A stretch of DNA of 64,000 bases from Psilocybe cubensis (GCA_017499595.2 CM039004.1:744001-808000), one strand, 5' to 3'. Positions 9,472 to 35,562 are shown, numbered from the stretch's first letter. The notes: a model not told the origin generated them from the letters alone. Translations and numbers: made by a program.

Positions 9472-11222
9472 CATCTGTAAACTCTGATTTTCGGGCTATA
9501 GCATGCGGCTAGCTTTAGCGCCAAGCTCGGCTAGCGTGGTAGCGCCAAAGTGTTACATAACTTTCTTTTGACTTCTCTATAGTGCTTGGTAGCACTTGAT
9601 AGTCATCGACTCGCTATATAACCGCTGTTTGATAAATTTGTAGCACTACCTAGTAAGCGTACTTATTGTACCACTACCTAGCAAGGATATATATCAGTAG
9701 TAATTCGAGGTTTTTGTGTAGTAGTTGATAGGTCATTGCCCAAATAAAGCTGCTTTCGGTACTTATGGGAGTTCCAGTGGATAAACATAATGAAAAGATG
9801 AATGAATTAACAAAAGTAAATACCACATTTCATGTGTTACCAATATAAAACTACAACTACCGACTAATCTATGGGCATTCCAACTCGCGCGGTGGACAGG
9901 TAATCGTATACTAATATGAGCGATCCTGCCAAGGTGTCTGCTCGAGGCAATGAATATCCAGGCCGCGGAAAGAGGGCATGCCGTGTCGGGGCGCAAGGTC
10001 GCTAAGCTGGTTGCGGCAAGGCGATATGTGGTGTCTATATAGGTGAGTACGCCTTCAGCGCATTATAAAAGCAAATGCTCACCTAGAAACGCCACTTGCA
10101 GACCCGATATATTCTCTTTGAGAGATCCTACAATCCAAATCCAAGGTGAGCACTACAAAAGGTCAGTATAATAGAACAAATACAAATTTACTTCAGCTTA
10201 CCGGAGTCGATGTAGTGGCTTGGGTGCAACCGTTATGGTTCACAATGGACTAGGAGACGCAAAGCGAGAGGGAAGAGGGAAGGAGTGGGGGGGACAAGAA
10301 ACGACTCCGAAGGCCGTGTTGTTTTGGCAGAGGATTTGTATGACCTATGTGCCAGAAAGTCTATGTAGTGAATACAGCAGACACTAGTAGTACGTACCTG
10401 GATGTACAACAGCGAACCAACCAACCACCCTTCAAGCTTCAAGGCTCACCAATACACCCGCATGGACTCGACTCACGATGGGATGCTGGACGAGGGACGT
10501 ACTCTGCACAGGTCAGTCGGTGTGGGTGGACAAAAGCAGACATTTCTGGTACGTACCTGCATTCCCTTTCACAACCACCCACCCTGATACCCCAAAACCC
10601 CGCCAGTCGTGTGTTTGGCGCCGTCCGGTATGTTCTATGACAGAGGTGCACCTGCATTATGTGGGTGTGAGGCTGTCGTATGACTGCAAGCCACGAACGT
10701 ACCACCAAGATAACCCCACCACGCATCTCTCGCGTCTAAAGTGACGACTTGATGCATTGCGCTGTTTTTGGCGATGTGGATATCAGGGATAAATGACAGA
10801 GTGCATAAGTACAATAGAATTCGACTAAAATGTATGAGCACTTAGCAAATTAATTTGATTCTGTGATCCCTCGGATTTTGAGTCGAAGCGTTACAAAAAT
10901 CCAATTTTGAGTCTGTTATAATGAGTCTTAATCATTGAAGCTTAGAAAATCTTACCGCCTTGTGAACCTTGAGTTCCTAATCATATTGAACTCGCTGCTG
11001 AATAAAATTGCCAGTCAGTGGATGTAGTAAAAAGGGTGATAGCGCTTCACCTGTTGTTTCGTTTGTCAACATTTGACAAAGGCTCCCGGTATCCGCACAG
11101 CTTTTCTCTTTTCACCTTCTCCAACCACCACCACCCACCACCTCGCTTTCTTCTCCAACCAACGCCCGACCACTGCTCTCTTTACTACCAATTCACTCAT
11201 CAACTCACTTGCTCCTCGTACC

Positions 11223-11713
11223 ATGCCTGACTTGACAAAAATCGTAGACAAGGCCAAGCAATACATCGGCCTGGTCAAGCTGTTCAAGATCTTGGTTTTT
11301 GGGATTCTGGTCTTCTGTACGACAATCTTCGGAGACGTAATCGAGATCTGCCGTGTTCTCAACCGTTGGGTACTCGTTCAGAGCACAAAAGAGCTACACA
11401 AGAGTATGGTTGAAGGGGTCAGTTATGAGCAGTTGAGGGAAGAGAGGGTGAGACGTACTTTCAACGTCAAGATGTGTTCACAGAATCGAGGTGCGTGTAT
11501 TCGGCTGTACTTTATCGACATTCATAACTCTTTGCAGAATCGCGGGTCGTTATCGAGGGATCGATCCAGGAAAATACCAACGTCACCATCGGGGAGTTGA
11601 CCCGCGAACATTCGGGCGTCCCATTCGCGTTACATTTGCGGCGTTCCCGACTGACTCAGCCACGTTCACCAGTCCTTCCCGCAACAGAGCTCATCGTTCC
11701 ATATGACGTTTAG
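11223..11713 (+). CDS. Small hypothetical protein with one hydrophobic segment (cargo of the giant element)
   Basis: ATG at 11223, LFKILVFGILVFCTTIFG hydrophobic stretch, probable intron at 11491-11537, TAG at 11711-11713. Confidence 0.45.
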
Positions 11714-11985
11714 CACCCTGTTCTACATACACCACCACTTTCCCTTCGTTTCCTCTCATCCACCACTCAATTTTCTTGGTACCTTGCAATCATTTCACAT
11801 ACTTCTGCACTCTGTCTTCCCATGCTTTTTAACTGCTTTTGCTGGTGTGTTCTTGTACATAATTCTATCTTACAATATCTTGTTTACTGCTTGTTCTATA
11901 ACGGTTATACCTAAATCAACATTCTTGGCATATGATGTAATTGATTTAAGCGCGCGCTTACAAAAATCTAATCACATCAGATCTG

Positions 11986-12352
11986 TTTTTTTTTGTTTTT
12001 TTTTTGGTGGAGCATGCCAGCTCGAGCATCACCCTACACCCACAAAAACCCCTGTAGGTCGGATCCAGGCTTCCTGCAGGCCATCTCTGTCTGCAAGGAC
12101 CCCCCCCACGTAGCCTCAACTAGCGCTCTGTTAAGGCTCAGGCGACCAGTGTCTGTACCCTGGTTAAATATTGTGTAAAGCCACCAACCTCCATATTAAG
12201 GATCAGAGTGCGACCGTTCTGTGTTGGGTGGGACTTATTCCACTGGGCGAGTTGGCATCTAGTTTGCCCAGTACAGGACCCCATATCGCTGTCTGGTCGA
12301 CTTCATTCCCCATGTATGCTCCGAGTATGCGGGTCAGCCATCCCTCCATCAC
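11986..12352 (-). mobile_element. 367-bp internally deleted, 5'-truncated L1-like LINE copy
   Basis: Poly(T) followed by GGTGGAGC, like the full LINE 3' end. Encodes RILGAYMGN..WNKSHPTQNGRTLILNMEVGGFTQY fused to LNRALVEATWGGVL..GVFVGVG*, both homologous to the nearby ORF2. TSD TCACATCAGAT(C/T)TG at 11972-11985 and 12353-12366. Confidence 0.8.
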
Positions 12353-12444
12353 TCACATCAGATTTGTTGTTTTTTGGTGGGGCGCTTAAGTGACTGGTCT
12401 TTTTTGTCTCGTTATTTGACAACTTTGCATTATATTATATGTTA

Positions 12445-15400
12445 CTAAGGAGGAGAGTTCCAGCCTGATGATAAAGCCCAATAAAACTCTTTTGTAAAAT
12501 ACCGGTTTAAGCGGAATTCCAGGCTTAAACTGTGACTGTTATTGGTGTTAAGCACAGGATTTGCTTTTACCCCCAACCGAGGGGTCAGGTCTGCGAGAGC
12601 GCAAAGTTGATCCAATGGGAGGATGTCGGCCATAGGATTGCCATCTGCGCGCTTGCTTCGTTTCAAAATATACATTGATGTGGACGGCTCTGGATAAAGA
12701 CCGCGGTCTCTCGATCCTGAGGCGGCTGGTTGAAGGACGACTTCGAAGCGCTGGGAGTATGTGAGAAACTTGTCAGTGACATATGGTATTGCCGTGTTTG
12801 GTGACGTAGGAACTGCACGAAAAATAAAACGAACGTCGACTACAATATGGCCTTTGATGACAAAATGTTAGCATGAGTTTTCTAGTAACAAATAAATTCT
12901 ACCTTTCAGACCACTTTGTGGCCATGTGTGGTCCAAGTCCACATTTGCAATCGCGGAATCAAAGAGACCGCAAGGATGTTTCTCTGAGGGTGGAAAGGCA
13001 CGCATGGTTACAGGAGGAAGACGGTTATGTGGATAAAAATATGAAGTGGATTGTAAACAAACTTTCTCCCACACCTCTAATGTTTTGACCGGCAGAATGG
13101 AGTCCATAGAGGCATATCGACGACCACCAATATAGTCTATGTGGCCACTTGGAGGCTGTGAATTTCCGGTAAAATTAGTATCGGCGATACGCGAGACCTT
13201 CTGGATGTAGTCTGCAAGTGCTGCTTGTAGATCTGGGAGGTTAAACATTTGGGCAACCTTCTGGATTGACATTCGTTTATAGCTAGAATCACGGGACAGA
13301 TGAAATGCCACGTTTTTTGAAATTTGCTGCGTTCTGAGTGGATAGGGATAGATTCCTGGGGAAGATTGTTTTAAGTATCTCGCGTCCTGGAAATAGTTGG
13401 CAATTTCGCGTGATTGCGATCCGGAGTAAGGTGTATAGTAGTTGAGGTAATGGAGGAGGTCATCCACGGTTTTAACGGTAGGACCAGTTTCAAGGTCCTC
13501 GAGTTCAGATAAGTCCGAGCCAGAGCCAGAGTCAGAGTCATCTTGAGGTGGTGGCGCATTGCCAAATTGAAGACCCGTCATTTGAACTGATGTTGCAAGG
13601 TCAAAATTACGGAGTTTTTCCATTCGGTCAAGGTAGCGGCATATCTGAGCTTCATATTTCTGGTTATTGCTGGCTGAGGCGGGCTCTTTCACCAATTCAA
13701 TGTGCGCATGTTCTGTGGTGTCCGCTGACCACTGGATCGCAGCGCCGTTGCACCTAATATTGGGTACTACGCTTTGAAGAATTTCTAGCTTTGGAATGAA
13801 CCAGTGATTGATTCCAATGCCCTTTTGTCCGCGCCGAGCACGAGCATCTATGATACTTTTCTTATACTGGTGGAATCCTTGGAGAGCATTTGAAATTTTG
13901 GTGCATTGTTCTTCGTCGATGACCGGGGCTTGTGCAAGATATCAAAAATCCATGAGAAAGCGGAGCGCAAAGAGAAAGTCATTGAGAACGGCATTGGCTA
14001 TAAGTGCTATCAAGTAGCGCTCTATATCACGATGTTCTCGGCCTGTCACCTGTTTCAGTGATGATATCCCTTCCTTAAAATGTCGAAAACCAGCATGGCC
14101 CTGAAGGACTTTGAAACGAAAGTCTAATTCGGCGCCACCAACAGCATTGATACACCATTTCACTTCGTGATCCCAAAAAAGCTTATGCCAATGGTGGAGG
14201 GGTTCTGGTGTGAGGAAGACCGAAGGGTCTGACAATGGCCAATCACGCCAAAATGGGCGATGTACACCATTCAGACGAAATTTATCGAATGCAGCCTTAC
14301 GGTAGGTCTCAAGCTCCCAAGGATTGAGGTTCAATGGGGGCTGTTCTAGGCTGTGTAAGGCCCTGAGGGTCGAAAGTCCTGTCCTAGGCGGGTGGCGAAA
14401 TGGGTCTCCAAATTGTTTGTTGTGTGCCATGGTGAGTGACAATGTTTTCCCCGCAACCCCTGAAATTAGAGCTGATTCGGGAGTATCCACGATATAGGCT
14501 GCGAGTGGAGTGTAACAGCGTCTTACATTTCCGACGGGGTCAGACATCATGACTCCAACTGCCGCTGCTACTTTCAAAGGGGCGAGTACAATGTCGAGGC
14601 ATTCGTGAGTGAGTCTAGCTTCCAGCATTCCGCGGATATTTCTTTGTGGATGATGAAAAATCGGGATAGGAAGAAGGGCCAGAAGAATGAAATGATGGCC
14701 TGTTCCTTTATTACGCACGTCCATAAATATATTTCCACTGCTAATAAGTAAAGGATGTGCCTGTCGATTGCCTGTTTGTGCAGAGATTGATGTTTTGTCG
14801 GAGGAAATGATAGCCCCAATAAGTGTTGCGCCATCCTCCAATTCATCCTTTTTAAAAAATAGGGCATTAGGCATTATTTAAAGAGCTCATAGGTGATTCG
14901 ATACGGACCTGCATAAAGTGCGCAGCATCGCCTGACAACCATTCAGTGTAGACCCGCGTAACCTTTGCTGCAGACTCCCACAAGCGAAAGGGAGTAAAAT
15001 GAATTTTATCGAGTAGGAGGGGAGAGCTAATAAGGACCTGCAAGCATTCCACAGGATTTCGATAGAAAAGATATACAGGCTTTTGTGTAGGAACCGCTGG
15101 TACCACTCTCTGACTTTTCCAAGCGGGGCCTGAAGGTAACATTTCTGCCCGATTTCGAAGTTCCTGGGCGGAACGGAAAGACAAGGATTGTGATTTCACC
15201 TATGGTCCAATGATTCATGATATGTATGTAGTAATTTTTATGAAGACTTACTATCCTCAGTTTGAGGTATTTATTAATTTTTTCCATACTCATTTGGGAA
15301 CGCAAAAGAAAGAGTGCCAATTCCCACTCTTGAGACGAAGCAAATGGATAAAACACATTTAATCTTCGCTTGTCGGCATTTTTGTCCTGATTGAACTTCT

Positions 15401-15794
15401 CCATGAAAGTGCTACCAACACTGTATACCCGACCAGCGTTGGGATAATTTTCCTTGAAATAGGGTGAGGCTGGTTTCGAATCACCGGTTTGGTTTTCTCT
15501 CTCTGTGTTATCGGATTCATCGGGGAAATCATCCGGGAAATCATCGGGGAAGGCTTCCTGCTCTTGTGGCGAGTCGTCCACATCCATGGAGTTGTCTTGC
15601 TGTTGCGGTGTATCTTCAAAGGTGTCAACCATCGGGGAAGGGTTAGTCTGAAAGATTATAACATCTTCAAACATGTAACGACAACAAACTCTCGGTTGAT
15701 TCATATGGTTAAGGAGCCTCGATTCATCCGGAAATCGGGCGGTACATCAAGGGCAAAGGTACACACGCTGCATAGTGCGTTATTGACCTTCCAT
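12445..15794 (-). pseudogene. Plavaka-family transposase (4 exons) with premature stops
   Basis: N-terminal C2H2-like finger, FYPFASSQEWELA, LFYRNPVECL, RVYTEWLSGD, GATLIGAIISSDKT, AAYIVDTPE, PEPLHHWHK, ELDFRF, WFIPKLE..WSADTTEHAHI. Introns at 15251-15200, 14908-14848 and about 12902-12852. In-frame stops at 15782-15780, 15749-15747 and 13944-13942. Confidence 0.9.
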
Positions 15795-16189
15795 GGAGGT
15801 AGATGGAGGTAGATGATAAGTTCTGATAACACGTATGATCAGACGACATTTTTATAGCATGATCCAAGCGTGAGTTACCTCCATTATTAGCACATTGTTA
15901 TCAATGCATGATCTATAAATAGAATGTGGTTGAATAAACGATGAAGTTCAAGGAAATTTGTGCAGTATACGCCCTCTTCCGCCTTCTGAACACCAACATG
16001 TGGTATAGATCCAGCCTCTTGACTGGCCCCATTGACGCTTTCGGTATAAAACACTGAGGAACAGGGACAAGGCGAGACATATGCTTGAGATCTTGTAATA
16101 TTTTGTATAGGGTATAGTTAACACAAAACGAAAGCCACCAATTGAGAGATACTATATGTATGCAAAGAAGCACAGGCTTCTCGTCAATC

Positions 16190-16925
16190 CAGTATCCGCC
16201 CTCTTGGTTGATTGTTCCTTGTTTACCAGCAATTCCTCATCAATCTTGTCATTGAGACTAGGAAATTTGCGCTTGAGATCCATGAAAGCTAGGCGCTTCT
16301 CCCAAACGACCTGAGATTTATGATTCGGTGTCCTTGTCGTTGTCAGGATTGCTTTTGCGAGTTTGAGTGGGTAGGAGAATTCTGCTTGGAGTCGGGCTAG
16401 CCTATCCGACGATGTGACTTGTGATGCACGAGTCTTTAGGACGGCTTTGCTTTCTTGTCTTCGGAAGCATATGTAGGATTCGTTGAGAGTATCGGATTCA
16501 TTGCCCTTAATTGATAGAATAAGTATATAGAGTAAGGAAAGAAAATGAATAACTTACATTTACGGTGGGTATGATTTGGTGTCCTCGTCGTTCCAATCTG
16601 CGCTCCTTCCAATAAGGGTAAATGGTTCTTGCGTTTTGAGCAAGGCTTGCGGTGTAGGTATCAAACTTGGCACACTGTATGTCGCGAACATCGTCACCCG
16701 AAGTGTCGCAGAGAAGACATCCTGATACTTTGAGAAAGCAGGGAATTCCATGCCTGTCTCCAAGCTCTACAAGACATTATAAGTAGCAAATTCTCTGTCA
16801 ATGGCAAGTCACGTACGTGATGCAGATACTCCGTCTTGTCGTGCATTACTTTCTTAAATATACCCATCACCAACTCGAACTCATCTTCAGAGATAACAAT
16901 AGGGACCGAAAATTTGGGCTTCTTG
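16190..16925 (-). pseudogene. EPL1: Captured internal fragment of Enhancer of polycomb-like protein 1 (NuA4 subunit)
   Basis: ISEDEFELVMGIF, IYPYWKERRLERRGHQIIP, ESYICFRRQESKAVLKTR and SSDRLARLQAE match the EPL1/EPC core. Two introns are retained (about 16817-16767 and 16557-16506), there is a frameshift near 16630, and both termini are missing. Confidence 0.8.
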
Positions 16926-17219
16926 ACCTTCACATTTATACTACAAGCTGAAGCCTAGGAAACATAGTCCAAAGTTGAGAACCAGTGTGAGATTAGTGTT
17001 GTCAGTGTGCATTAAAAGTCCTTTAACCAGATACACACTAAAATATTTGATGCGGGCTTAGGATAATCACCAAGTAGCGAAGGAAAGGGTAAATAAATGA
17101 ATAAACAGAGATTTAAAAAAAGTGTACATGTTCATTAACTAACTGTATAGAGAATGCATCAAGAAATAGGACGGGGCATGCATCAAAAAATGGGACAGGA
17201 TGTGCAATGACAAGAAGTT

Positions 17220-20183
17220 TCATTTCATATCGTGTGACTCCACAGGCAGGTGTTTGTCAAGGAATTTTTTAGCTTGCAGAGCATTGTTATCGATAAGCTC
17301 TCTGTTCACTTTCCCGCCTCTCAGTATTCGTTTCCAGGCATTGGCGGAGAGAGGCTGACCACCATTTTCGATTTCTTTGAGATGGTCAAGGAAAAAACGC
17401 TCATTCCGTTCAGTCCACCCCAGCCAATTGTACCCGTTGAATGTTGACCATACATAAGGCGGCGGAAACCACAATTTAAGAGTGACTTGGCCTTTGATTT
17501 CTGTAAAATATCAGAATGGGCAATGTTGAAATGACAGGAATAATGTACCAGTGTAGATTGAATAAGTTCCGCATATTACTGCCAGCTCATCTTCCGTCAT
17601 CTCATCATCGCAATACGCGCTACCGTCAGAGACTGAATGGAACACAAAGCCAGAATGATGTTCTGTGACTTCAATCGAGGGTCCTTCCAAAGCTCCGTCA
17701 AGACTAGTATGCTCTCGGGCAATGCGTGAAATGATTCCACCCTTTAACAATGCCGCACGGCCGCGAGGCTGGTTAACCATAGCTTTAGAGTATATCATGG
17801 AGGCCTGAAAATCGTGATGAGAAAATTCATATCCCGCCTTCCGAAACAATGTTGCTGCATAAGCTGCCCGTAATGTCTGAGTGTCGGGTGATAGCCGCAA
17901 TGGCACTAGAGTGCGAAATGCGATGCATTCCTTCAAAAGATGACGTGCAATTGTGAGCAGCGTGTATCGAGGGTTAGATAAAGCAAGACGGCAGATATAT
18001 AGTGCAATTGCAGGGGACTCAACTCCCAAAACCCAGTCCACCGCCGTTGTGAACGGTTTTGTGAATATAAACATGTTCGGCGATGGTCTTTGAATAGATG
18101 AAAAGTCCAGCAAATGGCTCAGGGAGGAGTGATTAGTGTCATTCAGATCACACAATTCGGCCAGCATCTGTGAATCTGACTTTACCAAGGCGGTGAAGAA
18201 TTTGATGATGCATTGCCGCTCCGTTGGTGAGAGCTGCTCATCCTGTCCGCCTACTTCGAATCCAAAGCATCTAGATACAGCTTTCCAGCTCTCTGATGAA
18301 GTTTCTGTTGCATTGACATTGGGTAAGGCCGGCACGTAACCATATCCATACTTCAAAGTGAGAATTGTGTCTTGCTTTGGCGTCTGGCGCACTGTGTCTG
18401 CTACGACAAACAGTTCCGGTGTGGAGTCAATTGTGGGCTTTTCAAGCTCCTGTCGACTATCGTCTACATGTGAAGAAGGCTGGGACAGCTGTTCAGAGAA
18501 GTACGGTGCCATATCGGAGCTTTCACTATCATCGACATCAGAAAGATCTTTAGGATCGCCGTAATCAACTTCATCGTCCATGTCGTCACCCTGTGCCAGT
18601 TCAAGAGGCGGTTTGAAGCCAGTGCAGAGATTCCACTCGTTGGTGATAGCGTCATAGACTCTTTGAGACTTTGGATAGCTATGGTACATCAATAGCTGAT
18701 TGTTCTTGTTCACGCGAAGTCTGAGGTAGAGTTTCTTCCCTCGCGAAGAACGAATTATCTTCCATTGGTAGATATTTGACTGTTCGAGAGGTGGGGGAGT
18801 CTTCTGGCATATTTTGAAGTATTCGATCATATCTTCCCTCTCGATAGCCAAAAATTCACTATTCCGTTTCGCTCTATTGTCAAAAAAGGCCTTCCAGTTA
18901 GCAAAAAGAGAACCCCTCTCCATTTCGTCCAGCCATCCAATCGCCTCTCGCATGGGTGCATTGGCCGCAAGATGAGCCACCTCTTTCTTAGCTGATGATT
19001 CAGCGGATACTTTTGACTCCAACCTCTTGAGTATCTCCGGAAATTGTGCTTCATTGGCCATGTCCTCGTTGGACATATACTCATAAAAAATATTTCTCAC
19101 CACTGTCGGTTTTTGTTTCCAATCCAGAGGAAAGATTTTTCGCGCATCTGCATTGTGTGGATTACAGTAGCGCTGTATTAGCAGCATGCACATCATTGCG
19201 TCAGAACCCTTGAGAATGGAACCCAGCGCTTTTCGAACCAAAGCTTCCGGGGGTTCAAAGGCCTTGAGAGAACGATCAAGAAGTACTGCTTCATCCTCGA
19301 CCATTGTCCATGGATAGTACACGGGGATGTGATGGTCAAAGAAGAACTGGATTGGCGGTCTGGATTTATCATGCTTGCTCAAGCGTAGAATGACACCGGC
19401 GCAAGGGGTGGTCCAGTCAAATGAAAGTACTGACGATGAGCATAACCCATCCAGCCAAGGGCCTTCAAGCGAACTTTGTTCTGAGAGTTTTTTGTACCAG
19501 TATGGATAAGGTTGATATGTGTGCTGCGGCTTGATAGCAACTTGATATTCGTGGCGCAATGCTTGAGTAATGAGATAAGAAAGATATCCCATCCAGACCA
19601 CAAACCAGCTCCTGGCCAAGGTTATCATTGTTCGAAGAATTTCAGGAGACTTCTGTGGTTTATTATAATGGAAAAACGACGGAGGTGGAGGAGAGGTACC
19701 GGGTATACCATGCTGCAACCGCAAGTAATGTGCTGCGCACAGTATGTTCCGTTCTGTGGTTTCCCAATGCAATCTATCGGCCTCCTGCATGACGTACTTG
19801 GGGTGTTCTTCTTTCTCTGAGTCTTCAGACTCTTTGGACGTTAAGGGTTCTATAATTGGGATCCAGCATAGGTTTTCAAAAGGATATGACAGAAAGGAAG
19901 GTGCAAGGGGGACGAAGGAAAGCCATCCAAATACATCCGACCACCAAACAGGTTGCTTGAACATTGCAGCGTTGAGGCGCTTGCCTTCAAAGGGACTGAC
20001 GACGTGTCCAGGTTCGGGAGGGATAACTACGGGGCGTTGCAAGTTTGGAGAGCAATAGATAGTCCCATCCTGGACAAATACACATCCTTGTTCCCAGTCA
20101 ATCTGAACGTTAGGATACTCCAGCATCAGGGCGAACTCTCTGATAAAAAATGGATTAAGGAACGAGTGAAGAGACGAAGACAA
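17220..20183 (-). CDS. Large hypothetical protein (about 950 aa), TE-associated; true start uncertain
   Basis: 890-codon open frame plus a final exon after an intron near 17550-17500. C-terminal motifs PRGRAALLKGGIISRIARE, DDEMTEDELAVICGTY, WFPPPYVW and GWTERNERFF. No named domain recognised. Confidence 0.75.
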
Positions 20184-20497
20184 TCATTTTTACTTACCGT
20201 TTAACAACACAAACAGGTTGTTTAGTCAAGTTACGGACGATATTGAGTCAAAAAAAGCTGAAGGACATTGAGTATTGGCTACGGATAACGATCGTGAACT
20301 TACAAAGTGATGCGAAGCCTTAGCTACCAGCTTTTCGAGATTTACTGCTTCTGACAACAGCGGTGCAGATTGCAAGATAGTGCGTCGGAAGGACACGAAG
20401 ATGGCGACGGCGGTAGAGGGATGACGGGCGCGACAGGTCGAAGAATGGAATCGCCACGGAATCGGAGCGAGATGAGAGGATCAGCTTAGTTGAAGAT

Positions 20498-21594
20498 ATA
20501 TAGACAAAACGTTCATCTATATCGCTTCAAAATAAGAAGTCCAGACCAGCGTGAGGTGTCTTGATTAACACTAGCGGGCAGAATACCAGGGGGGAAGTGG
20601 ATTCCACGGAATCACCACGGAATCGCAAGTTTGGCCAGAGGATTTAACGTGATTGACGATATACAGACGAAACGTTCATCTGTATATCTTCAATTGGCAT
20701 AAGCCGAGTTAGAGGATGACGGCGAATTGGCAAATACAGACAAAACGTTCATCTGTATTCCCAATATACGCGACGTTGATGGTTAAGGCAACTAAGCGAG
20801 ATCCAATAGTGCGCAGAGCAACAGTCACGTGATTTAATTTCAATCTCCGATTAAATTAACTTGGAGGAACGTTGATGCTTGCTCTGATTCCCACCCTATC
20901 TTCCCCGCACCCACTGGTGTCGATAAGGAATACAGAAGAACGTTTCTTCTGTATTTCTTTCTGACATTCAGTGGGCATGTTTTCCTCCAAATAAACCTCG
21001 ATCTGCCTCCTTCCTCTTCCCAACCATGTTTTTTACCCTATCCAAGTTGCCCGCGCGCCCACTGATATGATTGATAAGGAATACAGGAGAACGTTTCTTC
21101 TGTATTTCTTTCTGACATCCAGTGGGCGTGTTTTCCTCCAAGTAAACCTTGATCTGCTTTTCCTCTTCCCAACCATGTTTTTTTTACCCTATCTTGCCCG
21201 CGCCCACTGTTTGATCGATAAGAAATATAGAAGAACATTTCTTCTGTATTTCTTTCTGACATTCAGTCGTCGTTTCTCCTCCAAGTAAACCTTGTTCTGC
21301 CTCCTTCCTCTTCCCAACCAAGATTCTCACCCTATTTTACCCGCACCCCCTGATGTCGATGAGGAATACAGGAGAACATTTCTTCTCTATTTCTTTTTCA
21401 CATCAAATGTTCGTATGCCCCACCAAATACACGCATGCCTCCTTCTGCTTCCCAACCGACCAGTAATCCATCCCTCAACTCTGATCATCAACAGAATCCA
21501 AGGGCTAGTTCAGGCATTTGATAATTTACCCTCTTTTGTCCACCTTGTCGCAGGCGCTTCGATTCGACAGGGAATACAGAGTTTCTTCTATATT
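20498..21594. repeat. Array of 7-8 quasi-palindromic 25-bp motifs; the right-hand copies sit in tandem units of about 140-150 bp
   Basis: Consensus ATACAGAWGAACGTTTYKTCTGTAT. Inverted copies at 20498, 20661 and 20734; forward copies at 20930, 21081, 21225 and 21366; a degenerate copy at 21574. Confidence 0.85.
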
Positions 21595-25500: not shown

Positions 25501-25762
25501 TCGGACTGGAACTAACAACAGCAAAGTATGGCAATGTCCATACTGGGATGCTCGCGTTTATTGATATGATTCAGAAGAATTCATATCATGGTGCCAAGCT
25601 CGAGCAGCGTTGTCGCCACTGGGCAAAGAAGGGCATGTGAGTATTGCTTTGGCATTGTTTGTTTTACTCATTTTCCCCTTCATTGACAACCTTTACAGGG
25701 AATTTCTCAGATCTTGTCCCAATGTCTCCAACCAACTTCAGTTCCGGCCTGTTCTGGACTGA
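22585..25762 (+). CDS. Multi-exon protein with a low-complexity N-terminus and a C-terminal DUF6532-like domain (may carry lesions)
   Basis: Many canonical introns. NFGHPCVEAAVLQFFY..GIAKLFPESF..ALALVATI|IKCCLDEYATG..YGNVHTGML..YHGAKLEQRCRHWA..FRPVLD*. Confidence 0.75.
24397..24497 (+). repeat. Coding (AAC)n/(GACAAT)n microsatellite (Asn/Asp tract)
   Basis: Directly visible inside the DUF6532-like gene. Confidence 0.9.
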
Positions 25763-26194
25763 AGTCGGTTGGTTGGCGGTTGGTTGGCAACATCAGCAGA
25801 AAAAGAAAAAACTCAGTAGTGCTATAGTTGTATAATAGACTGGGTAGTCTTGTTGACTGCCCCCCTATTTTATTGCTCCCGTAGCTTCCCACCTAAAGTC
25901 AGTAGACCCTGTAGATTTCTTAGTCATATATGTAGCTTTTGTAGTTTTCTATAATTCTAACAAATAGTATAATAATAATCTATAGATACTACTGGTACTA
26001 CATTGCTAATGCACAATTTGATATTGAGTAAAAATCATCAATAGGGCATTCTACTCCCTCCAACTAGTTGACTATGAATAGTAAGCATCCACCAAGTCCA
26101 ACAATACACTATACCTCTACTTAACTCTTTTTAACCCATCCACTATTAGAATTAGTTAATTAGATAACAACAGAAAAGATATGGTTATGACTGG

Positions 26195-26228
<34 letters not shown>

Positions 26229-26370
26229 GTGGAGCCTTTAGGATCCTGGACAATCAACAAGGTTGACCTCCAAGATCGGCTTTTTTTACGTCACACGTAG
26301 TGACGTTTAACCCCGGGGAAATGTCTTAGCACGCTCTGTGTGAGAGCAGTGTAGGACTGGGGAACCGTTT

Positions 26371-29300
26371 TCAACGGTTGCGTCCAGACGGACACCCCTC
26401 TATACCCACTAAAACCCCGGCGGCTGTGAGCCAGTCATCACCCAGGTCTCCCTGGTTGAGTAGCACCCCCCACCAGGTTTTTTGAACCAGTGAGGGGTTG
26501 AGTGCTCTTTTTCCGTAGCGTCTCTCATTTGTTGAGAGGCAGTCGATTTTGAGTCGTCTGTTTATGGTTTGTATCCATTTTTGTCGGATTCCGTCGTCAC
26601 TAATTATTTTGTCGTCTCGTGCTCCGTGTTCAATTTTCCACTTGCATCTCATTTTCCAGATGAGGTGTGCGCTCTCAGATATCAGTATCGCGTAGAGCCT
26701 GTTCGCTCCCGTTAATGTGGTTCTTTTCTTTTCCGGATGGAAGTTTGCGAGGCCGCACCCAAGTATGTGTCCAATTTTTGGTTTTTTCCAGTCGAGTTTA
26801 CGGAGGCTCCATAGTTCTTCGGCTGCTTGCCATACTGCTTCTTGGCCTGTCGCTCTGCACTCGGTGAGTATGTGTTCCATTGTGTCTGTTGTTTGGCAGA
26901 CGTGGCAGTAGCCTCTGATTTCGTAGCCTGGGATCCGTTCCCAGTATTCGCCCACTTTGTAGGCATCGTGCATGGTTTTCCAGAGGAAGGCTCTTCCTCG
27001 GACTGAGATGTCTCTTTTCTTTATGGCCGCCCAGATTTGTTTATCTGTTGGCAGACATCTTCCTATTTCTTCTGCAGCGTATCGTGTCTTGTCTAGGTTT
27101 ATTAGGGTTTGTCTCCTCGGTTCTACTTTTTCCTTTTCTCTTCTCATTATAGCTTTGTATGCGGTTGACTGGGACATCGCCTGTATCTTAATCCCAATTT
27201 GGTGTTGTGTGGTAGGTTGTTCCCTTGGTGGTTCATCTGGTCTGTCATTTCTTACTTCTCCGTGTGCAGGAGAGATCAGGTTTTGGGCCTCTTCGAGGGT
27301 CGTCCACTCATCTGGTTCGTCCTCGGTTATTGTCTGGAAAGTTGTTTGAGCTTTCCTCTGTCGTAGAAGGTTTAGTATTTCTTGCAGAATGTCTGCATCG
27401 TGGTCCTTTGTCCACCCACAGTCTTCTAGGTGGTGAATTTGTTCATGGAGCATTTTTGTCAGGTGGGGTGATTTTGATTTGAAGTCAAGTTTAACGGTAT
27501 GTTGCTCGTCGCGTAGTATGAGTTGGAGCAGGGTTAGCATGCTGCGTCTTGCTGTCTGCGTGGGGCCTGTTCTTTTAATGGTGAAGTTCTTTGCGTTATT
27601 TCCTGCATACCAGGCTACTCCAGATGATGTTGCCGTCTCAGTGTTAGTGTTCTTACACGTGCTGGCTAAGTATATGACTTGTTTGTCTTCCGGGTCTGGT
27701 TCTGGTTCTGGTTCCTCCTCGAATACGGGGGGATAGGCTTGTACTTGTCTGTCTCCTGGTTCCGGCGTGGGCGGCTTACTTCTGAAAACTCTCAGGTTGG
27801 ACAGAGGTGTTCCGTTTGTTGAAGTTTTTGGATTGAAGATAACTGGCTTGTTTGTCATTATGTTCCGGTTGTTTGTCTCCACATCCTGTGCTGATAAGCT
27901 GGGGATGTCTTCTGCCTTCCTTGGGTCCCAATTTGGGAGTAGGATGTCCAATACTTTTGCAGCTGCCTCGCGACATAGTGCTGGGTTGTTGCAGCCGGCG
28001 GCTCTGTCTTCTTTACATAATGCACATTTGCAGTTTCTACGTCGCAGGTGGCCTCTGCCGTTATTTCGGTGGGCAAAGGCCGCCATCTGGCCTGTCAGCG
28101 ATATATGGTGGTTTTGCTGCTGGCATCTTACCCATTTGTGTGTTCTGTACGACCTTTTGTTCGGGTCGAAGCCTATGTGGTGCCAGATTGGCATTTGTTC
28201 TCTCATTTGTTTGCCTGGGTTCACGTCGTGGACTCCAACATTGTACTTTCTTGCTGTTGCTAGCATGTCTCGTAGGCTGTCTGGTATGTTAGGGTTACTT
28301 TGTAGTTTCGCTGTCCAGTTTTGCAGGAAGTAGTTGTCTTCTTTTGCAACATCGGGGACGTCAAAGGCCTGGTTTGCGTTTAGGACAAGGATTTGGTCTG
28401 CTACTTTAGCCCATCTCGGCCTATCTTTTGGGGGCTTTGTAAAGTTTCGGAGTTTCATGAGCTCTATGGCTTCGTTTCGCGCTTTTATATCTAGTAGGTT
28501 TCTGCCTCCCTCATTTATTGGTAGGCGTATTGTGTTAATATTTACGGTGGCGGATTTGTCGTCCCAGAAGAATTTGTGGATCTTCTTTTCAATCTGGTCA
28601 GCTACTTCTTTGGGCATACTTTGTACTTGGGCCTTGTATTGGGTGAGTCCCCCAACGACCATGTTTATGATTAGTCGGCGGCCTTCTTGGGTTGGATGGC
28701 TTCTTCCCCATCTCGCAAGTTGCTTATCGATTTTTTCAAGTGTAGGCGTCCACACTGACAGGTTTTTAATGTCGTTTCCAATGTAGGCTCCCAGGAGTCT
28801 TACTGGTTCTGAGTCTCTTGCTATTTTAATGCTTGGGTCAATGTGTGTGGTGTTGGACGGTTTAAGTTTTCGGGTGTCTATTACATTCTTACGGTATTGT
28901 GGTGATCCCGCTGGTATTATTACTGTCTTGTTCTGATTGAACTTTGCCCCCGACACTTTGCACCATTTCTGTAGGACACCAAAAAGAGTTTGTATGTCAT
29001 CGTCTTTGCATAGGTAGACCGTCGTGTCATCAGCAAACAGGGTTGTAATCAGCCTTTCTGTTTCTCCCTTGATTTTGAATCCTTGTAGAGGTGAGTCCCG
29101 GAGTAGTTGCGCTAGAGACTCTATTGCTAAGTTGAAAATAAGGCAGGAGAGGGGGTCTCCTTGGCGGACTCCTCTGGTTATTTTGTACGGTTCGCCTATT
29201 TCTCCATTTATAATGATTACAGTTTCTCCATTTTCATATAGTGTTCTTACTGAATTTATAAAGTGCTGCGGGAGATTTAGTTTCTCCAGTGTTAGCCATA

Positions 29301-31365
29301 TAAATTTGTGTTGTATTTTGTCGTATGCCTTCTCTTGGTCTAAGCAGATGATGACTCCATCCTGTTCTTCTGCTTCACAGTTGCTTAGCATGAGTCGAGC
29401 TAGTTCTGTTTGGTCTGTTATTGACCTTCCTTTCATAAATCCTGCTTGGTCGGGATGTACCAGAGTAGGTGCTACGCGGGAGAGGCGGTTTGTTAGTATT
29501 CTTGTGAAGATCTTATAGTCTGTGTTTAGGACCGTGATGGGTCTGTAGTTACTAATGTGGGTTTTATCCCCTTTTTTATATATGGGGCACATCCATCCTT
29601 TAGGGAAGTCGGACCCGTTTTCGAGTCCTCGCTTTTCTATGTCGTTGAAAACCTTGGTGAGTAGTGTAATAACGTCAAAGGTAGGGTTATTGTGTTTTTT
29701 GTCATTTTCGTGTTGTGCGATTAGCATCTTCCACAGTTCATGGGGGATGCCGTCTATACCCGCCGCCTTTCCATCGGGTAGGTCTTTGCAGGCTTGGCTG
29801 ACCTCTTCCTTTTTCATGAGGGTCGCTAGGGTTGCCTTTTCATTGTTGGATAGTTTTGGTCTTAGGTGGCTTAGGACGTCATTGTAGTCCTCGTTACTGG
29901 GGTTAGTGTCTCCTCCATCTTGTTGTAGGTTGTTGTGGTATGTGGTTGCAATTTTTGTCATCTCTCTCGTACTTCTGGTATACATTTTGTTTCCTGGTGT
30001 GGACTCTAGTGTTTGGAGTTGTGGTAGTGTATCCCGGGGCAGTCGGTCTTTATTTGCCTGTACCCAGAATTTTCCTATGCGCTCGCTCTCAAGCGCTCCT
30101 TTAACTGCAATGTTATCTCTCGTTTTTGTGTGGCGGAGAGTTTCGAGTTGTTTTATTTTTTCCTCTATGGCTGCTAAGTCCGCTTGTATCATTTCTAGTG
30201 GTTTACCTGGTGTGTTATTCAATGTTTGCTTTAGGTCGTCTTTTAGCTTTGCAATTCTTGCGTCCATCTTAGGGGTTTCACGTCTGGAGAACTCACGCGT
30301 GAACTTTAATATGTCTATTTTCAGCTTTTTAAAAATGCTCTGGGGGGTGTCGTGGCCCTGTCTTATGTCAGCCGGGAGTGTGTCAATCTTTTCAAGTGCT
30401 TGTCTGCCTAGTTTTTTTATTTCTGTAATGACTTTCTTGTCTTTTATGAGGTAGAGTGGTATAGCCCACCTGCCTTTTCCAATGAAGGGGGAGCCGGGGC
30501 TTGTGAACTCCATAGACACCATTTGGTGGTCCGTTTTGATAGCGGTATGGTTTATTTCCCAGTTTCTGCTATGGTTAAATATCTGTTCGGATACATAGAT
30601 TCTATCTATGCGTGATCTTGCTTGTGTAGCATCTTGCGTATATGTGAAGGCTATCGTGTTCGTGTTTGTGCGGCGCCATCCGTCTATAAGTCTGAAGTAG
30701 CTTTTAAGGTTTACTAAGCCATCCGTTTGCGTGTGGTTGTCTTGGTGCATAGGAAGGCGATCTATAGCTTCTTCTACCATGTTTAGGTCTCCCAGCATTA
30801 TGTCAGGGATTGGTAGGTTGCGTGTATCCCATTCTGTAACTAGTTTGTCCCAGAACTCTGCATTTTCATTTGATGGGTTAGGTGCATAGACCGCCAGGAT
30901 ATTTATCATTGAGTCATTTTTCCATGGGAGGGTCATCAGTGTTGCCCTTCCTGGTATTACCTTTATGGTTTTTGCCTCTTTCCAGGCGGTTAGCTGTTTG
31001 TTTAGGATAAGGGCAACCCCTTTAGCATTTGGTTGGGTAGGGTCACTGTTGTTTAAGATGTGGAGTCTGCCCGGGAATTGCTCGTGGAGACTATCTACAT
31101 CATCTGGCTTTAAGTGAGTTTCTTGAATCGCTAGGATTCCAATTTTGTTGTCTCTTATGATTTGGTTAACGTGACCCCACTTATGCCTTGTGTTGTTCGA
31201 TCCGCCCCCTCTTATGTTTAGGGAGGCGACTTTCAGGCTACCTCTGGTTGTTTTCATGTGTAGCTTATGGTTTTGGGCCCTAGGTTGAGTGGTCCGTCTA
31301 TTATTTTGGTTCTGGGTTGGTTGCCTCTGCGGCTGGTGTGTTGCATTTGCATTAGCATTACTCAT
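26371..31365 (-). CDS. LINE ORF2: APE endonuclease, reverse transcriptase, degenerate RNase H-like region, C-terminal zinc finger
   Basis: SLNIRG, IQETH, GDLN, SRIDRIY and TDH (APE); NYRPI, DQEKAYD, GVRQGDPLS and LFADDT (RT); CHVC..DTMEHILTEC. 1664 aa with no stops. Confidence 0.95.
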   Translation of the reverse strand: MSNANANATHQPQRQPTQNQNNRRTTQPRAQNHKLHMKTTRGSLKVASLNIRGGGSNNTRHKWGHVNQIIRDNKIGILAIQETHLKPDDVDSLHEQFPGRLHILNNSDPTQPNAKGVALILNKQLTAWKEAKTIKVIPGRATLMTLPWKNDSMINILAVYAPNPSNENAEFWDKLVTEWDTRNLPIPDIMLGDLNMVEEAIDRLPMHQDNHTQTDGLVNLKSYFRLIDGWRRTNTNTIAFTYTQDATQARSRIDRIYVSEQIFNHSRNWEINHTAIKTDHQMVSMEFTSPGSPFIGKGRWAIPLYLIKDKKVITEIKKLGRQALEKIDTLPADIRQGHDTPQSIFKKLKIDILKFTREFSRRETPKMDARIAKLKDDLKQTLNNTPGKPLEMIQADLAAIEEKIKQLETLRHTKTRDNIAVKGALESERIGKFWVQANKDRLPRDTLPQLQTLESTPGNKMYTRSTREMTKIATTYHNNLQQDGGDTNPSNEDYNDVLSHLRPKLSNNEKATLATLMKKEEVSQACKDLPDGKAAGIDGIPHELWKMLIAQHENDKKHNNPTFDVITLLTKVFNDIEKRGLENGSDFPKGWMCPIYKKGDKTHISNYRPITVLNTDYKIFTRILTNRLSRVAPTLVHPDQAGFMKGRSITDQTELARLMLSNCEAEEQDGVIICLDQEKAYDKIQHKFIWLTLEKLNLPQHFINSVRTLYENGETVIIINGEIGEPYKITRGVRQGDPLSCLIFNLAIESLAQLLRDSPLQGFKIKGETERLITTLFADDTTVYLCKDDDIQTLFGVLQKWCKVSGAKFNQNKTVIIPAGSPQYRKNVIDTRKLKPSNTTHIDPSIKIARDSEPVRLLGAYIGNDIKNLSVWTPTLEKIDKQLARWGRSHPTQEGRRLIINMVVGGLTQYKAQVQSMPKEVADQIEKKIHKFFWDDKSATVNINTIRLPINEGGRNLLDIKARNEAIELMKLRNFTKPPKDRPRWAKVADQILVLNANQAFDVPDVAKEDNYFLQNWTAKLQSNPNIPDSLRDMLATARKYNVGVHDVNPGKQMREQMPIWHHIGFDPNKRSYRTHKWVRCQQQNHHISLTGQMAAFAHRNNGRGHLRRRNCKCALCKEDRAAGCNNPALCREAAAKVLDILLPNWDPRKAEDIPSLSAQDVETNNRNIMTNKPVIFNPKTSTNGTPLSNLRVFRSKPPTPEPGDRQVQAYPPVFEEEPEPEPDPEDKQVIYLASTCKNTNTETATSSGVAWYAGNNAKNFTIKRTGPTQTARRSMLTLLQLILRDEQHTVKLDFKSKSPHLTKMLHEQIHHLEDCGWTKDHDADILQEILNLLRQRKAQTTFQTITEDEPDEWTTLEEAQNLISPAHGEVRNDRPDEPPREQPTTQHQIGIKIQAMSQSTAYKAIMRREKEKVEPRRQTLINLDKTRYAAEEIGRCLPTDKQIWAAIKKRDISVRGRAFLWKTMHDAYKVGEYWERIPGYEIRGYCHVCQTTDTMEHILTECRATGQEAVWQAAEELWSLRKLDWKKPKIGHILGCGLANFHPEKKRTTLTGANRLYAILISESAHLIWKMRCKWKIEHGARDDKIISDDGIRQKWIQTINRRLKIDCLSTNERRYGKRALNPSLVQKTWWGVLLNQGDLGDDWLTAAGVLVGIEGCPSGRNR

Positions 31366-32142
31366 TTGTAGCGGTGGTCTTTGCTCTATGTGGGCACCCG
31401 GGTTTGGGGAGGCGGCCGTGGTTGACCTGTCTGGGCATTGCCCTACACTGGCAGGGTTTCTTGAGGATTGACTTATGTCGCGGTCCTCACCCTCCGTTTG
31501 TGTTTGCGGCCTTACGGCTGCGCTGAAATAGCATCTGTCTCCGTGAAATCCAGAACCTTCATTGGAGTGTAGACCGACAGTGGAGTCTACAGTACCTCTG
31601 GTTTCTGAAAGTGCTGTGCCAATACAGGTGTTAACTACCGATGATTGGGAAAGACGAATATACGAAGAAGTCGGTTTCGAGGATTCCGGCAGTAACGACT
31701 ATCTAACCGGGTCCGGAGCCAATTTACCAAGGCTGCCTCAGGCAGAGCATGTTGGGAAGTACTTTCTGATTCTATTCCTAGATAATAGTTATCAGTATTC
31801 CATCGCAACTTCAGTCTCTCGACACGGCACGTCATTGACCTAAATAGGTCGCCGTTTGCGCTTCATATGAAGCTGCTTTTCACTCGGGCTTTCCTGTCCC
31901 AATTTGCATTAGTCAGTATGTGTGGGCCCTAGTGTCGATTATGAGCAAAGCACTTGTTTGTACCTTACCTCAATCTGAGGGGTTCGTCAATCTAGGTGCG
32001 AGTATGTGGCATGTACGACATGTCATTGTTCTATGTATGGTACACCAGTTACGTTACATAGAAGGGTACGGTGGGGTTCATATAGGTGGTAGTACAAAAA
32101 AATAAAGAGGAGAAAAAAAAAGAGGGAGGGGAGGGGAGGGTC

Positions 32143-33928
32143 TCAACGCCTCTTGACCTGGCCCTTGAAGTCCTTGTGGCTTGTTGCCTTGAAACCCCCT
32201 CCCTTTGGCTTGCTGGAGCCTTCGCCGCGGGTCGTCTTCCGAGGGGGTGGTTTTGTTGTGGGTGGAGGGTGGCGGTGGATGTGACGTGAGGTGCCGAGGG
32301 GGCAGAGGCCAGTAGGGTGATCGCGTCCCATGCAGAAGGAGCACTCAAAATCTGGGAGAGGGATGGCTGCCCCACGCGGGGTAGAGTACCGGCCTTGGCG
32401 AAGCAGCTGCCTGATGCGGTTCATGACGACGTTGTTAGTACATATTGGGGCAACATACACTCTGAAGACGACGCGCGTTGCCTTCCCCCCGGGTTGGAGG
32501 ACTTCCAGAGCATGGACTGCTACTGTCGAAGCCATGTCTCTCTGGATGCGGGAGCCAGTGATCTCGGGGTCAGACGTGATAGTGGCCATTTCACGGGAGA
32601 GGTGGTTCTTGAGCTCGTTGTTTGTTGTGATATGGTTGCGGATAGTCTCCTCAATGACCCTCTCGCTGGGGCGGGTAGCCTTATAGTTAAGGTTACCTAG
32701 AGTCATCACGTAGTGGGTCTGGAAGGGGGTTGTTTTGAAAGTGAGGAAAGTGAAGCCCGGGAGAAGGGACCATGCGACTCGTTGTTCAGTGATTTTGCGA
32801 TCGTGACGCTCGAGGCCGGAGATAAGGAGGGGGCAGGGGAGTTTGGGGTTTGTAGAGATGTATATGCCGGGAGCGACGTTGATGTTGGGGTTATGTGGGA
32901 ACGCCTTGTTAAGGCAGGTATTAACCGCATCTGCGATGTCGGGGGCATCACCTTCAGGTATACCCCCAACTGGCACTGCATAACATGTCCCCCCTCTAGT
33001 GATTACCCTTTTCCAGTCTTCGAGAACTTTCGGGTCAAGGTTCGCGGTGATGATGTCTAGCGTCACCCCTTGCACAACATCGTAGCCATCCTCTGGCGTG
33101 GGGTGGAGGCCTTTGACCTCTCCATAGGCCTGGTCGGTGAGCGCTTCGCTATACATGCTGAGGTAGCTCAGCGCGTCGTCGTCGTCGTCCCCTTCGCTGT
33201 CGTGGTCATCAGGCGAGATGTGACGTTCGGACTGTGGTTTGTCGCGGAAAGGGTTTGGGATGGGGGGATGAGGGGGTAGTTCGAGAGTGACGCTGGGGAG
33301 CACCCCTCCGGTATGGGTAGGGATATGAGGTTCACGTGGAGGGGGAGGTGGGGGGTGGTCGCGGCTAGCGCGTTTTGCAGGTTGGTTGTCGGTGGGATCG
33401 GCTGCCCGCTGGCGCTTGCGATTGTCTGGGTAGCGTGTTAGCAATGTACGGCATAATTATGTTGTGGTTTTTACCTGTTTCTCCTGCCTTGGGGGCAGGA
33501 GCTTTCGCCTGGGAGCGTCCTATGGCAGGGGCTCTTGCGGTTGGCACCATGTTCGACGACGAGGGGGGGGGAAGAGGGGGGAAGTCCGCTGGGGTGGTAC
33601 CAGGGGGTGTGTTTGGGCGTCGTTTGAAGGGGATCTGGATGGTCCGCCATACTTTCTTAGGTGGGGTGGCGGGTTCGTGCTCTGTCTGAGGGGGTTGAGG
33701 AGAGGGCTCCCTCATAACTTTGTCGGCCTGCGACATCTGGGTTTCGGTGCGGGCACTCCCGGTGAAGAACTCTTCAAGTTCGTCTTCGGGGGTGCCTGCG
33801 TAGTCGGCCGTCTCGTCCATGATAGGTGACGCATGCATGGACCTATTGGTGTCTACGCGTTGTTGGGAGCAAAGGACGCGCGGGGTGTTATCGAGGTTGT
33901 TGTTAACGTTGGTGTTGGAGTGGGACAT
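32143..33928 (-). CDS. LINE ORF1 (gag-like, CCHC knuckle), 578 aa after removing a 49-nt intron
   Basis: The two overlapping ORFs join in frame by splicing 33474-33426 (GTAAAA..GCTAAC..CCAG). C-terminal CSFCMGRDHPTGLC. Confidence 0.8.
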
Positions 33929-35562
33929 GTTTGAGAGTGGAGTGCGGCTGGGTTAGTTTGTAGGTTAAACTGGGGGGTATAGGAGTTGTCCTTACAGTAT
34001 ATATGTTTGCCTGCTACGTCGGCTGGGCGTTGTGCAGTGCGGAGGGACGCGTAATCCTCTGTTGGTGGCGTAGGTCTCCTTTGAAAGAAGGGTTAATGCT
34101 TTCTGCTTCTCACCTTTGTTTGTGACGTCTTCCAATTTTCCAAGACATAGGCTCTTTGTCCCATTGCCAAAGGGGTGTGTCTGCTCCGGTGTCTGGACCG
34201 TCTTTCAGTTGGGTGGCGATTTACTCTGGGTAGTGGCGTCTGGTGGCATGTCGTCTGTACCACTATGCCCTCTGGAGAGCTCTCTGGGTGTCGTGCGGGG
34301 GCTACATGGTGGATCGAAGGCAGCGGTTGATGGAGGAGAGGACAGCTAGTGTCTTTCCTGTACGTGGTACCGTCTTACGTCCTCGCCTTGCTCCAAATCT
34401 ACCCGTGGCACAGCTAGTGGACCATGGGAAAATTTAGCGAACATGGTGGTTCTGGAACAAGGAGCCCCCCCGGTTATGACTGGAATTGAACCAGTGACTC
34501 CTGAACATATATGCCAATACTTTACCACTGAGCTACATGACCTATAAATAGATAGAGAGTTGTATGTTAATATCCACTATTGCATCCATTGTTTTGACTC
34601 TGTATTGTGCTCTTTAATATTGACATTAGTATTGTAGTCATTCCACCCTTTCTATTCCATCCAATCTCATACCATAAAACCCCACAACCCAATCCACATT
34701 TACACTATAGTCTATATTATTTTGTAAAGTCTTGTGGTCTACTGGTTTAAGCACTATCTATTTTTGGCTAAGGTTGATGGTTCAATCCTCAACCAGGCCA
34801 TTTATTTCGCGCACAGACTATTAAGTCTACAGGCATATTGTAAGTACTGCCATATGTTGCATGGGCCTTGGTTATATATTCTCTGTAGATTGCTGTATAT
34901 TGTAAATACAATATATTAAACCTATGTAATGAAAACATATTGCATAATGATATTATATAAGGCTACTAAGTATAAAAAAGGCTACTGGGAAGTGGCCATT
35001 ATTATAGTATCTACTGTAAATTAAGCCTATGCTACTGAAAAAAACCTTTCCTGCAGATGAAGTTAGTACATTAGCTTATAGACATAGCTTCATATATATA
35101 TATATAATATTACAATCAATTATTTTCAGTGCTATTAAATTTGGACGAGCATGAATGTGAGCTGTATGGGGCAAGCCTATCATTGGAATAAATGCTACCA
35201 ATTACCTATTTCAACTAAGCACTGTAGTGTTCTGTAGCTAACTGCGCTATGCTACACAGTGCCATAAAGCTTGATATTGACCTCTACAGATAATCAAGTG
35301 ATGCCTTCTGTAGTACTACAGAGAATTATATGTCATACTACTTACTGCTTTACAGCATTCCTATAAGGACTACTGACTCCATTATGAGTCGCTATATAGC
35401 ATTTGGTAGCACGCTACCAAATGCTATACATCGCTACATAGTAACCTCATCTGACCACAGCATTACATAGTCATGTGAGGCAGTTACCTAAACAGGGACC
35501 CTTGCTACCGGAAGGTACATAGCGCTACAGATCGTCGGCTAGCAAATCACAGTTTACAGATG

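Follow-up and report, generated by a model that had tools for sequence, protein, structure and literature searches.

The 64,000-bp stretch of Psilocybe cubensis DNA analysed here (GCA_017499595.2, CM039004.1:744001-808000; hereafter the window, with positions counted from its first nucleotide) contains a real and precisely bounded large insertion of a Plavaka transposon. It occupies positions 9472-35562 within a tyrosine-recombinase gene, is now dead, has been enlarged by a long interspersed nuclear element (LINE), and belongs to a type of element that has already been described. We consider it highly likely that the locus records a single cut-and-paste insertion of a PlavakaB-like DDE transposon, related to CACTA/EnSpm, which persists as a decaying relic together with a probable accessory gene. 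This relic is probably single-copy.

The ends of the element are clearly delimited (Table 1). Allowing up to three mismatches, CATCTGTAAACTSTGATTT occurs at only two sites in the 64-kb window, in opposite orientations at the two extremities of the element, for a chance expectation of 0.03 obtained from shuffles. These terminal inverted repeats (TIRs) are identical at 18 of 19 positions, their likeness stops past 19 bp, and each is flanked by a CT dinucleotide, as described in the initial annotation. The motif TGGTAGC is present in both subterminal regions, with five of its seven sites in the window no more than 370 bp away from one end of the element or the other. Removing positions 9472-35564, corresponding to the element and one CT copy, leaves a 455-codon open frame starting at 8732, in agreement with the continuous tyrosine recombinase that had been proposed; shifting the junction by -2, -1, +1 or +2 breaks the rejoined frame, and a shift of +3 merely loses a codon. 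The residue at the junction is a leucine, whose codon is formed by CT and the T at 35565.

The conservation of the interrupted gene provides an independent view of this junction. The left half alone (246 residues) was searched against 1.84 billion representative proteins, giving 1069 matches at E ≤ 1e-3, and the two halves were aligned separately to the best 150 of these 1069 homologs. The left half was matched in all 150 and the right half also in 84, and the projected gap between the halves was exactly one residue in 79 of these 84, so that the homologs are indeed collinear across the junction; the five exceptions are P0050, P0060, P0088, P0145 and P0150. Among 67 homologs in which the alignment of the left half extends to its final residue, 45 have leucine at the junction, and the homolog consensus around it (L-D/N-L-x-x-P-L-D-A-A) agrees with the rejoined sequence. 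Because excision restores the frame and the homologs leave room for a single residue, the boundaries and the 2-bp target-site duplication (TSD) can be regarded as established about as well as sequence alone permits. That the 26-kb block could instead be a chimeric join in the assembly seems extremely improbable: the region is repeat-rich, but an artefact of this kind would not leave matching TIRs and a 2-bp duplication, nor would it split a conserved gene with codon precision. Moreover, gene models from more than one public P. cubensis annotation record (P0284, P0001 and P0285) cover positions 20126 to 12448 in the same arrangement, P0284 being the transposase model and P0001 and the 2095-aa P0285 being fused models of neighbouring genes; that the organism is P. 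cubensis is also borne out by gene-model matches at 100%.

The nature of the interrupted gene must be worded more cautiously than in the initial annotation, where it was called Ngaro. A Ngaro/DIRS retrotransposon as the host of the insertion would carry reverse transcriptase (RT) and RNase H beside the tyrosine recombinase. Neither was found in 58 open reading frames (ORFs) of at least 80 aa across 1-9221 and 36022-46122, nor in five further flanking ORFs, and seven long recombinase homologs (767-1445 aa) likewise showed neither; therefore, the Ngaro label is unsupported. Just downstream of the recombinase ORF, a 137-nt direct repeat with 99% identity is present at 36373-36509 and 36885-37021; this repeat possibly belongs to the terminal structure of the element that was interrupted.

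Inside the TIRs, the transposase identifies the element as a Plavaka-type DDE transposon, as initially proposed. In the Pfam searches, the Plavaka domain (PF18759, E 6.8e-68) is followed by DUF6830 (PF20722, E 4.5e-46), and in a scan of the interior ORFs the N-terminal part also matches Plavaka (E 1.2e-16); together with the 19-bp TIRs and the 2-bp TSD, this is the combination expected of a Plavaka element. Its placement in the CMCT clade (EnSpm, Mirage, Chapaev, Transib and Plavaka) rests on this Pfam family and should be read as such. The gene, with introns at about 15200-15248 and 12.87-12.92 kb, spans the entire length of homologs of 860-1040 aa and covers positions 1-993 of a full-length hidden Markov model (HMM) built from them. 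An autonomous copy would have an uninterrupted transposase frame, and the frame here contains two in-frame TGA codons (Table 1). The homolog alignments run through both, the homologs having a conserved arginine at these positions, and C-to-T transitions in CGA codons could account for both changes. A third in-frame stop sits in a short insertion relative to the homologs, which we read as a probable intron. Since the two TGA codons stand at conserved arginine positions, this copy has lost the ability to move by itself; its transposase is thus complete in extent, yet inactivated, and the copy non-autonomous. The transposase shares 67% identity with its closest relatives, which come from Flammula alnicola and metagenomes, and only about 50-60% with the other Plavaka proteins of P. 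cubensis.

Table 1. Features of the Plavaka insertion and its surroundings (window positions).
Feature	Position	Strand	Basis and remarks
DUF6532-domain ORF outside the element, just upstream of the recombinase	7924-8409	+	Pfam E 1.2e-6
Tyrosine-recombinase ORF, left half (246 codons plus CT of the Leu codon)	8732-9471	+	open frame; homologs; collinearity
Left CT copy of the 2-bp TSD	9470-9471		sequence; one-residue junction in homologs
Left TIR (CATCTG...)	9472-9490	+	pattern match; terminus resembles PlavakaB 5'-CATCA
Left subterminal region	9491-9700		TGGTAGC at 9537, 9587
Fragment of a different, diverged LINE (ORF2 residues 967-1028)	12147-12331	-	tblastn E 3e-14, 48-64% identity
Plavaka transposase gene	12466-15761	-	Pfam; homolog coverage; TGA at 15747-15749 and 13942-13944; public model P0284
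Epl1-like (Enhancer-of-polycomb) gene fragment	16155-16954	-	P0001 mapping; the public model joins it to the upstream gene
Intact ~950-aa gene, one intron near 17511-17560	17235-20126	-	13 homologs end to end; 36 metagenome loci
Tandem array of four ~145-bp units with a palindrome inside each	20922-21442		repeat search; ~0.8 kb upstream of the ~950-aa gene
DUF6532-domain gene or remnant	24181-25637	+	Pfam E 4.9e-8, 8e-4
Full-length nested LINE, 8,273 bp	26199-34471	-	ORFs; poly-A tail; exact 16-bp TSD
tRNA-like sequence (tRNA-Tyr, unusual anticodon ATA)	34471-34542	-	ARAGORN
Right subterminal region	35190-35543		TGGTAGC at 35194, 35404, 35413
Right TIR	35544-35562	-	pattern match
Right CT copy of the 2-bp TSD	35563-35564		sequence; frame restoration
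Tyrosine-recombinase ORF, right half (catalytic domain)	35565-36192	+	Pfam Phage_integrase E 8.1e-7; collinearity

The ends and cargo of such elements, of which the initial annotation knew no detailed description, are in print. The name Plavaka originates with Iyer et al. (2014; cited through PMC12730594 and PMC8290104). Among the Plavaka families reconstructed from Agaricomycotina, PlavakaA has TGT..ACA termini and a 2-bp TSD, while PlavakaB has CATCA..TGATG termini, a 2- or 3-bp TSD and, in some families, TET/JBP genes (Kojima, 2025, Biology 14:1741, PMC12730594). The TIR motifs of Marasmius Plavaka elements are characterised in the supplement of PMC8290104, and giant Plavaka families of 17.4-19.1 kb with three accessory genes are reported from the red alga Bostrychia in a preprint noting that, for basidiomycetes, TET/JBP was the only accessory gene reported until then (bioRxiv 10.1101/2025.02.11.637652). 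The termini observed in the window, 5'-CATCT..AGATG-3', agree with the published PlavakaB ends at four of five bases. The two are also alike in the Plavaka-domain transposase, the CATC..GATG termini, the 2-bp TSD, the Agaricales host and the presence of non-transposase genes (PMC12730594). They differ in the fifth base, T here instead of A, and in their additional genes, a ~950-aa gene being present here and TET/JBP not being detected. A TET+ Plavaka element would contain a TET/JBP dioxygenase gene, and no Tet_JBP match was obtained in the 10 and 75 interior ORFs searched, although a very divergent PE-type enzyme could escape Pfam.

With the giant Plavaka elements of Bostrychia, the P. cubensis element shares the transposase, a size of 17-19 kb, several accessory genes, and tandem inverted-repeat arrays beside an accessory gene, to be compared with the palindromic units at 20922-21442; in contrast, the algal families are present in very many copies and encode PAG1-3 (methylase/SET and 2OG-oxygenase-like), whereas the fungal element is apparently single-copy (bioRxiv 10.1101/2025.02.11.637652). 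A comparison can also be drawn with plant elements, which the window element resembles in several structural respects. The En/Spm (CACTA) elements of plants have CA..TG termini, a 3-bp TSD, subterminal repeat motifs, and a transposase of the Transposase_21/tnp2 family accompanied by a second element-encoded protein. The CA..TG termini, the short TSD, the subterminal motifs and the pairing of a transposase with a probable second element protein are found here too, but the TSD is 2 bp rather than 3 bp and the transposase is Plavaka rather than Transposase_21/tnp2.

The size of the element needs to be considered separately from its identity. The interior contains one full-length LINE, bounded by an exact 16-bp TSD (26183-26198 and 34472-34487), with an ORF1 (33952-32146) carrying a Cys/His knuckle and an intact ORF2 of 1775 aa (31698-26374) carrying endonuclease, RT and zf-RVT domains; its target was the 3' end of the tRNA-like sequence. 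The other LINE is a fragment of at least 185 bp. Therefore, instead of two nested LINEs and a remainder of about 17.4 kb, as first estimated, there is one full-length LINE and a short piece of another, and the element without the full-length LINE and its TSD measures 17,802 bp. Likewise, the statement that the block arrived as one unit has to be corrected: the LINE, a separate insertion with its own TSD, accounts for at least 8.3 kb of later sequence, and further segments of the interior may also be later additions. One could go further and suppose that the first arrival was a modest Plavaka element, made up of the transposase and perhaps the ~950-aa gene, and that most of the remaining interior (the DUF6532 gene, the tRNA-like region, the Epl1-like fragment and the 9.5-12.4 kb segment) was added later by nested insertion or local rearrangement; the mobile unit itself would then not have been giant. 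We regard this scenario as unlikely. The 8.27-kb LINE is a proven later insertion, the second LINE fragment points the same way, and the DUF6532 ORF beside the recombinase, outside the element, raises the possibility that DUF6532 genes are part of other mobile units. However, the interior shows no recognisable TSD or terminus that would reveal another nested element, no similarity between the inner and outer DUF6532 regions was detected at the DNA level or in tblastx, and the same short motif occurs in both subterminal regions, as expected of intact ends. The element interior from 9472 to 26198 likewise showed no DNA or tblastx similarity to the rest of the window.

The genes found beyond the transposase, namely the ~950-aa gene, the Epl1-like fragment and the DUF6532 remnant, agree with the initial annotation in that the element holds genes other than the transposase. 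The Epl1-like fragment lies between the ~950-aa gene and the transposase; it has no Pfam match, and its sole matches among PDB sequences are five Epl1 chains (E 0.003-0.018). The inner DUF6532 matches fall in two ORFs in different frames (25256-25477 and 25407-25637), and the ORF just upstream of them (24862-25266) found no homolog in a search against longer proteins. The Epl1-like fragment, the DUF6532 gene and the repeats presumably travelled with the element. In the public annotation, the models P0001 and P0285 (16155-20126) fuse the ~950-aa gene with the Epl1-like fragment, and one record adds the transposase; the locus name "Enhancer of polycomb-like protein 1" is probably a misannotation.

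This content bears directly on the most ambitious proposal made for the locus, that of an active or recently active giant DDE element shuttling host genes as a basidiomycete functional analogue of the Starships. A length of 17.8 kb before the LINE, exact boundaries, several non-transposase ORFs of which one is intact and conserved, and a fragment resembling the host gene Epl1 would all fit such an element. Nevertheless, we find this very unlikely, as the transposase carries two nonsense codons, no second copy was detected in protein databases, the Epl1-like piece is a fragment, and a scan of the 75 interior ORFs that reach at least 70 aa, LINE ORF2 excluded, found no recognisable metabolic, resistance or other host-function domain, its only Pfam matches being Plavaka, DUF6532 and marginal ones. 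In addition, the Ganoderma genomes show an expansion of DUF6532 together with KDZ and Plavaka domains (PMC8955403), which suggests that DUF6532 is itself transposon-borne. The interior is thus composed of transposon-associated or uncharacterised families and fragments, and the description as gene-shuttling and Starship-like could not be upheld.

The comparison with Starships leads to the same point from the side of mechanism. Starships are mobilised by a DUF3435 tyrosine-recombinase "captain" located at one end. The P. cubensis element is, like the Starships of Pezizomycotina (PMC11162782), a large fungal mobile element with non-transposase genes. Unlike them, it has TIRs and a DDE-type transposase, it measures 17.8-26 kb, its internal genes are not recognisable host cargo, and the tyrosine recombinase is its interrupted target, split by the element and lying outside the TIRs, so that membership among the Starships was rejected. 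The analogy is therefore not supported with respect to mechanism, cargo or evidence of mobility.

The ~950-aa gene lies directly upstream of the transposase on the same strand. Its product aligns end to end with 13 database homologs from Pholiota, Agrocybe, Gymnopilus and metagenomes at 29-45% identity, and these 13 proteins together with 36 metagenome loci align along the gene at 25-46% identity with many invariant residues. The precomputed database Pfam label of its relatives is PF28437, while the protein itself had no match in the local Pfam copy, no usable match in the ESM Atlas, and none when its profile was compared with PDB sequences. A moderately confident AlphaFold2 model (mean predicted local distance difference test score 65.5) retrieved no PDB structure with Foldseek at E ≤ 0.001, the best match having an E of 1.2. 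None of 120 listed Plavaka proteins is fused to this protein.

The metagenome loci provide some information on the company that this gene keeps. In a soil-metagenome contig (L004), the ~950-aa gene is followed at a distance of less than 1 kb by an ORF with a Plavaka domain (E 1.1e-11) in the same orientation, the arrangement seen in the window; in L030 and L031, which are one sequence in two samples, a homolog of this ORF stands some 1 kb upstream of the gene and is divergently oriented. These divergent transposases of L004 and L030 were missed by the homolog-built Plavaka HMMs and detected with Pfam and phmmer. Since Plavaka adjoins the gene in two independent soil-metagenome contigs, the gene may be an accessory one, and we find it probable that it is associated with the element rather than captured as host cargo. 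Tandem arrays occur within about 1 kb upstream of the gene in 4 of the 23 loci examined, as well as in the window, where the units bear palindromes; the window array was not reported by TRF at min_score 40. These upstream arrays recall those beside PAG3 in algal Plavaka elements, a resemblance that is suggestive only and not decisive. In L004, tandem units of about 70-100 bp, each with a palindrome of about 25 bp, are found on both sides of the family gene (3100-3440 and 6760-6965). It is possible, although doubt prevails, that the gene represents a second, conserved and so far undescribed Plavaka element gene (~950 aa, PF28437) that travels with different Plavaka transposase lineages, is often flanked by arrays of palindromic tandem repeats, and might encode a TnpA-like or PAG-like factor binding element DNA.

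Several observations weigh against a single PlavakaB-like insertion accompanied by an accessory gene and must be kept in mind. The fifth terminal base departs from the published PlavakaB consensus (CATCT versus CATCA). Of the 15 loci flanked by 2.5 kb or more, only 3 have Plavaka beside the ~950-aa gene, representing two independent cases. Seven contigs (L003, L008, L009, L013, L016, L018 and L036) share other recurrent neighbour genes that are absent from the window; on the flank expected to hold the transposase, most of these contigs stop after 0-2 kb. Within P. cubensis, the protein databases show no close paralog of the transposase, given the identity values above, and the sole match of the ~950-aa gene is the locus itself; in the absence of a second copy among the annotated proteins, movement of the interior as a unit is not demonstrated. 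Finally, both junctions are known from the assembled sequence; nine sequencing runs from three studies share part or all of 34480-36480 (shares from 0.81 to 0.30, no RNA run being listed), and these shares are no evidence on the assembly, on empty sites or on expression. Concerning the seven contigs, the recurrent neighbours of the ~950-aa family comprise at least five gene families of unknown function (A-F), and they could be a conserved cluster or a different large mobile unit carrying several genes. None of the neighbour families A-I of the metagenome loci is present in the window, the 11-base TIR start was found in none of the 36 loci, and in a tblastn comparison of 25 interior ORF translations with these loci, only the ~950-aa gene matched.

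Under the interpretation that we favour, a single Plavaka insertion followed by decay, a PlavakaB-like transposon would have inserted into the tyrosine-recombinase coding sequence of P. cubensis and duplicated CT. At that time, it would have had 19-bp TIRs starting with CATCTG, subterminal motifs and a length of at most about 17.8 kb before later additions, and it would have encoded a full-length Plavaka and DUF6830 transposase with the ~950-aa gene upstream on the same strand. A full-length LINE later landed in the tRNA-like sequence, adding 8.3 kb, and the transposase gained its two TGA codons at conserved arginine positions, so that the capacity for self-movement was lost.

Other repeats are present elsewhere in the window. 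An LTR (long terminal repeat) retrotransposon at 46181-50814, with identical 181-bp LTRs (46181-46361 and 50634-50814) and a 1395-aa open frame (46439-50626), looks very young. A 934-nt inverted repeat (3955-6687) lies in AT-rich sequence (GC 0.38) to the left of the recombinase gene; its arms, at 3955-4888 and 5754-6687, are 94% complementary and 865 nt apart. A perfect palindrome of 74 nt is located at 53480-53628 (arms 53480-53553 and 53555-53628, 100% complementary, with a 1-nt gap). A direct duplication at 40280-44338, with blocks of 300 and 291 nt at 97% and 92% identity and a spacing of about 2.93 kb, suggests a tandemly duplicated unit. A GC-rich tandem repeat of about 27 bp, with three copies listed, occupies positions 1-98.

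In conclusion, this locus provides a base-exact large Plavaka insertion with a built-in empty-site control, formed by the split gene and its hundreds of homologs. It gives no ground for a new class of gene-shuttling elements, but it is useful for the curation of Plavaka families in Agaricales and for the repeat annotation of Psilocybe, where the public models fuse the transposon genes and mislabel them as "Enhancer of polycomb-like protein 1". What may be new here is the companion of the transposase: the recurrent ~950-aa gene adjoining Plavaka transposases constitutes a modest new lead.

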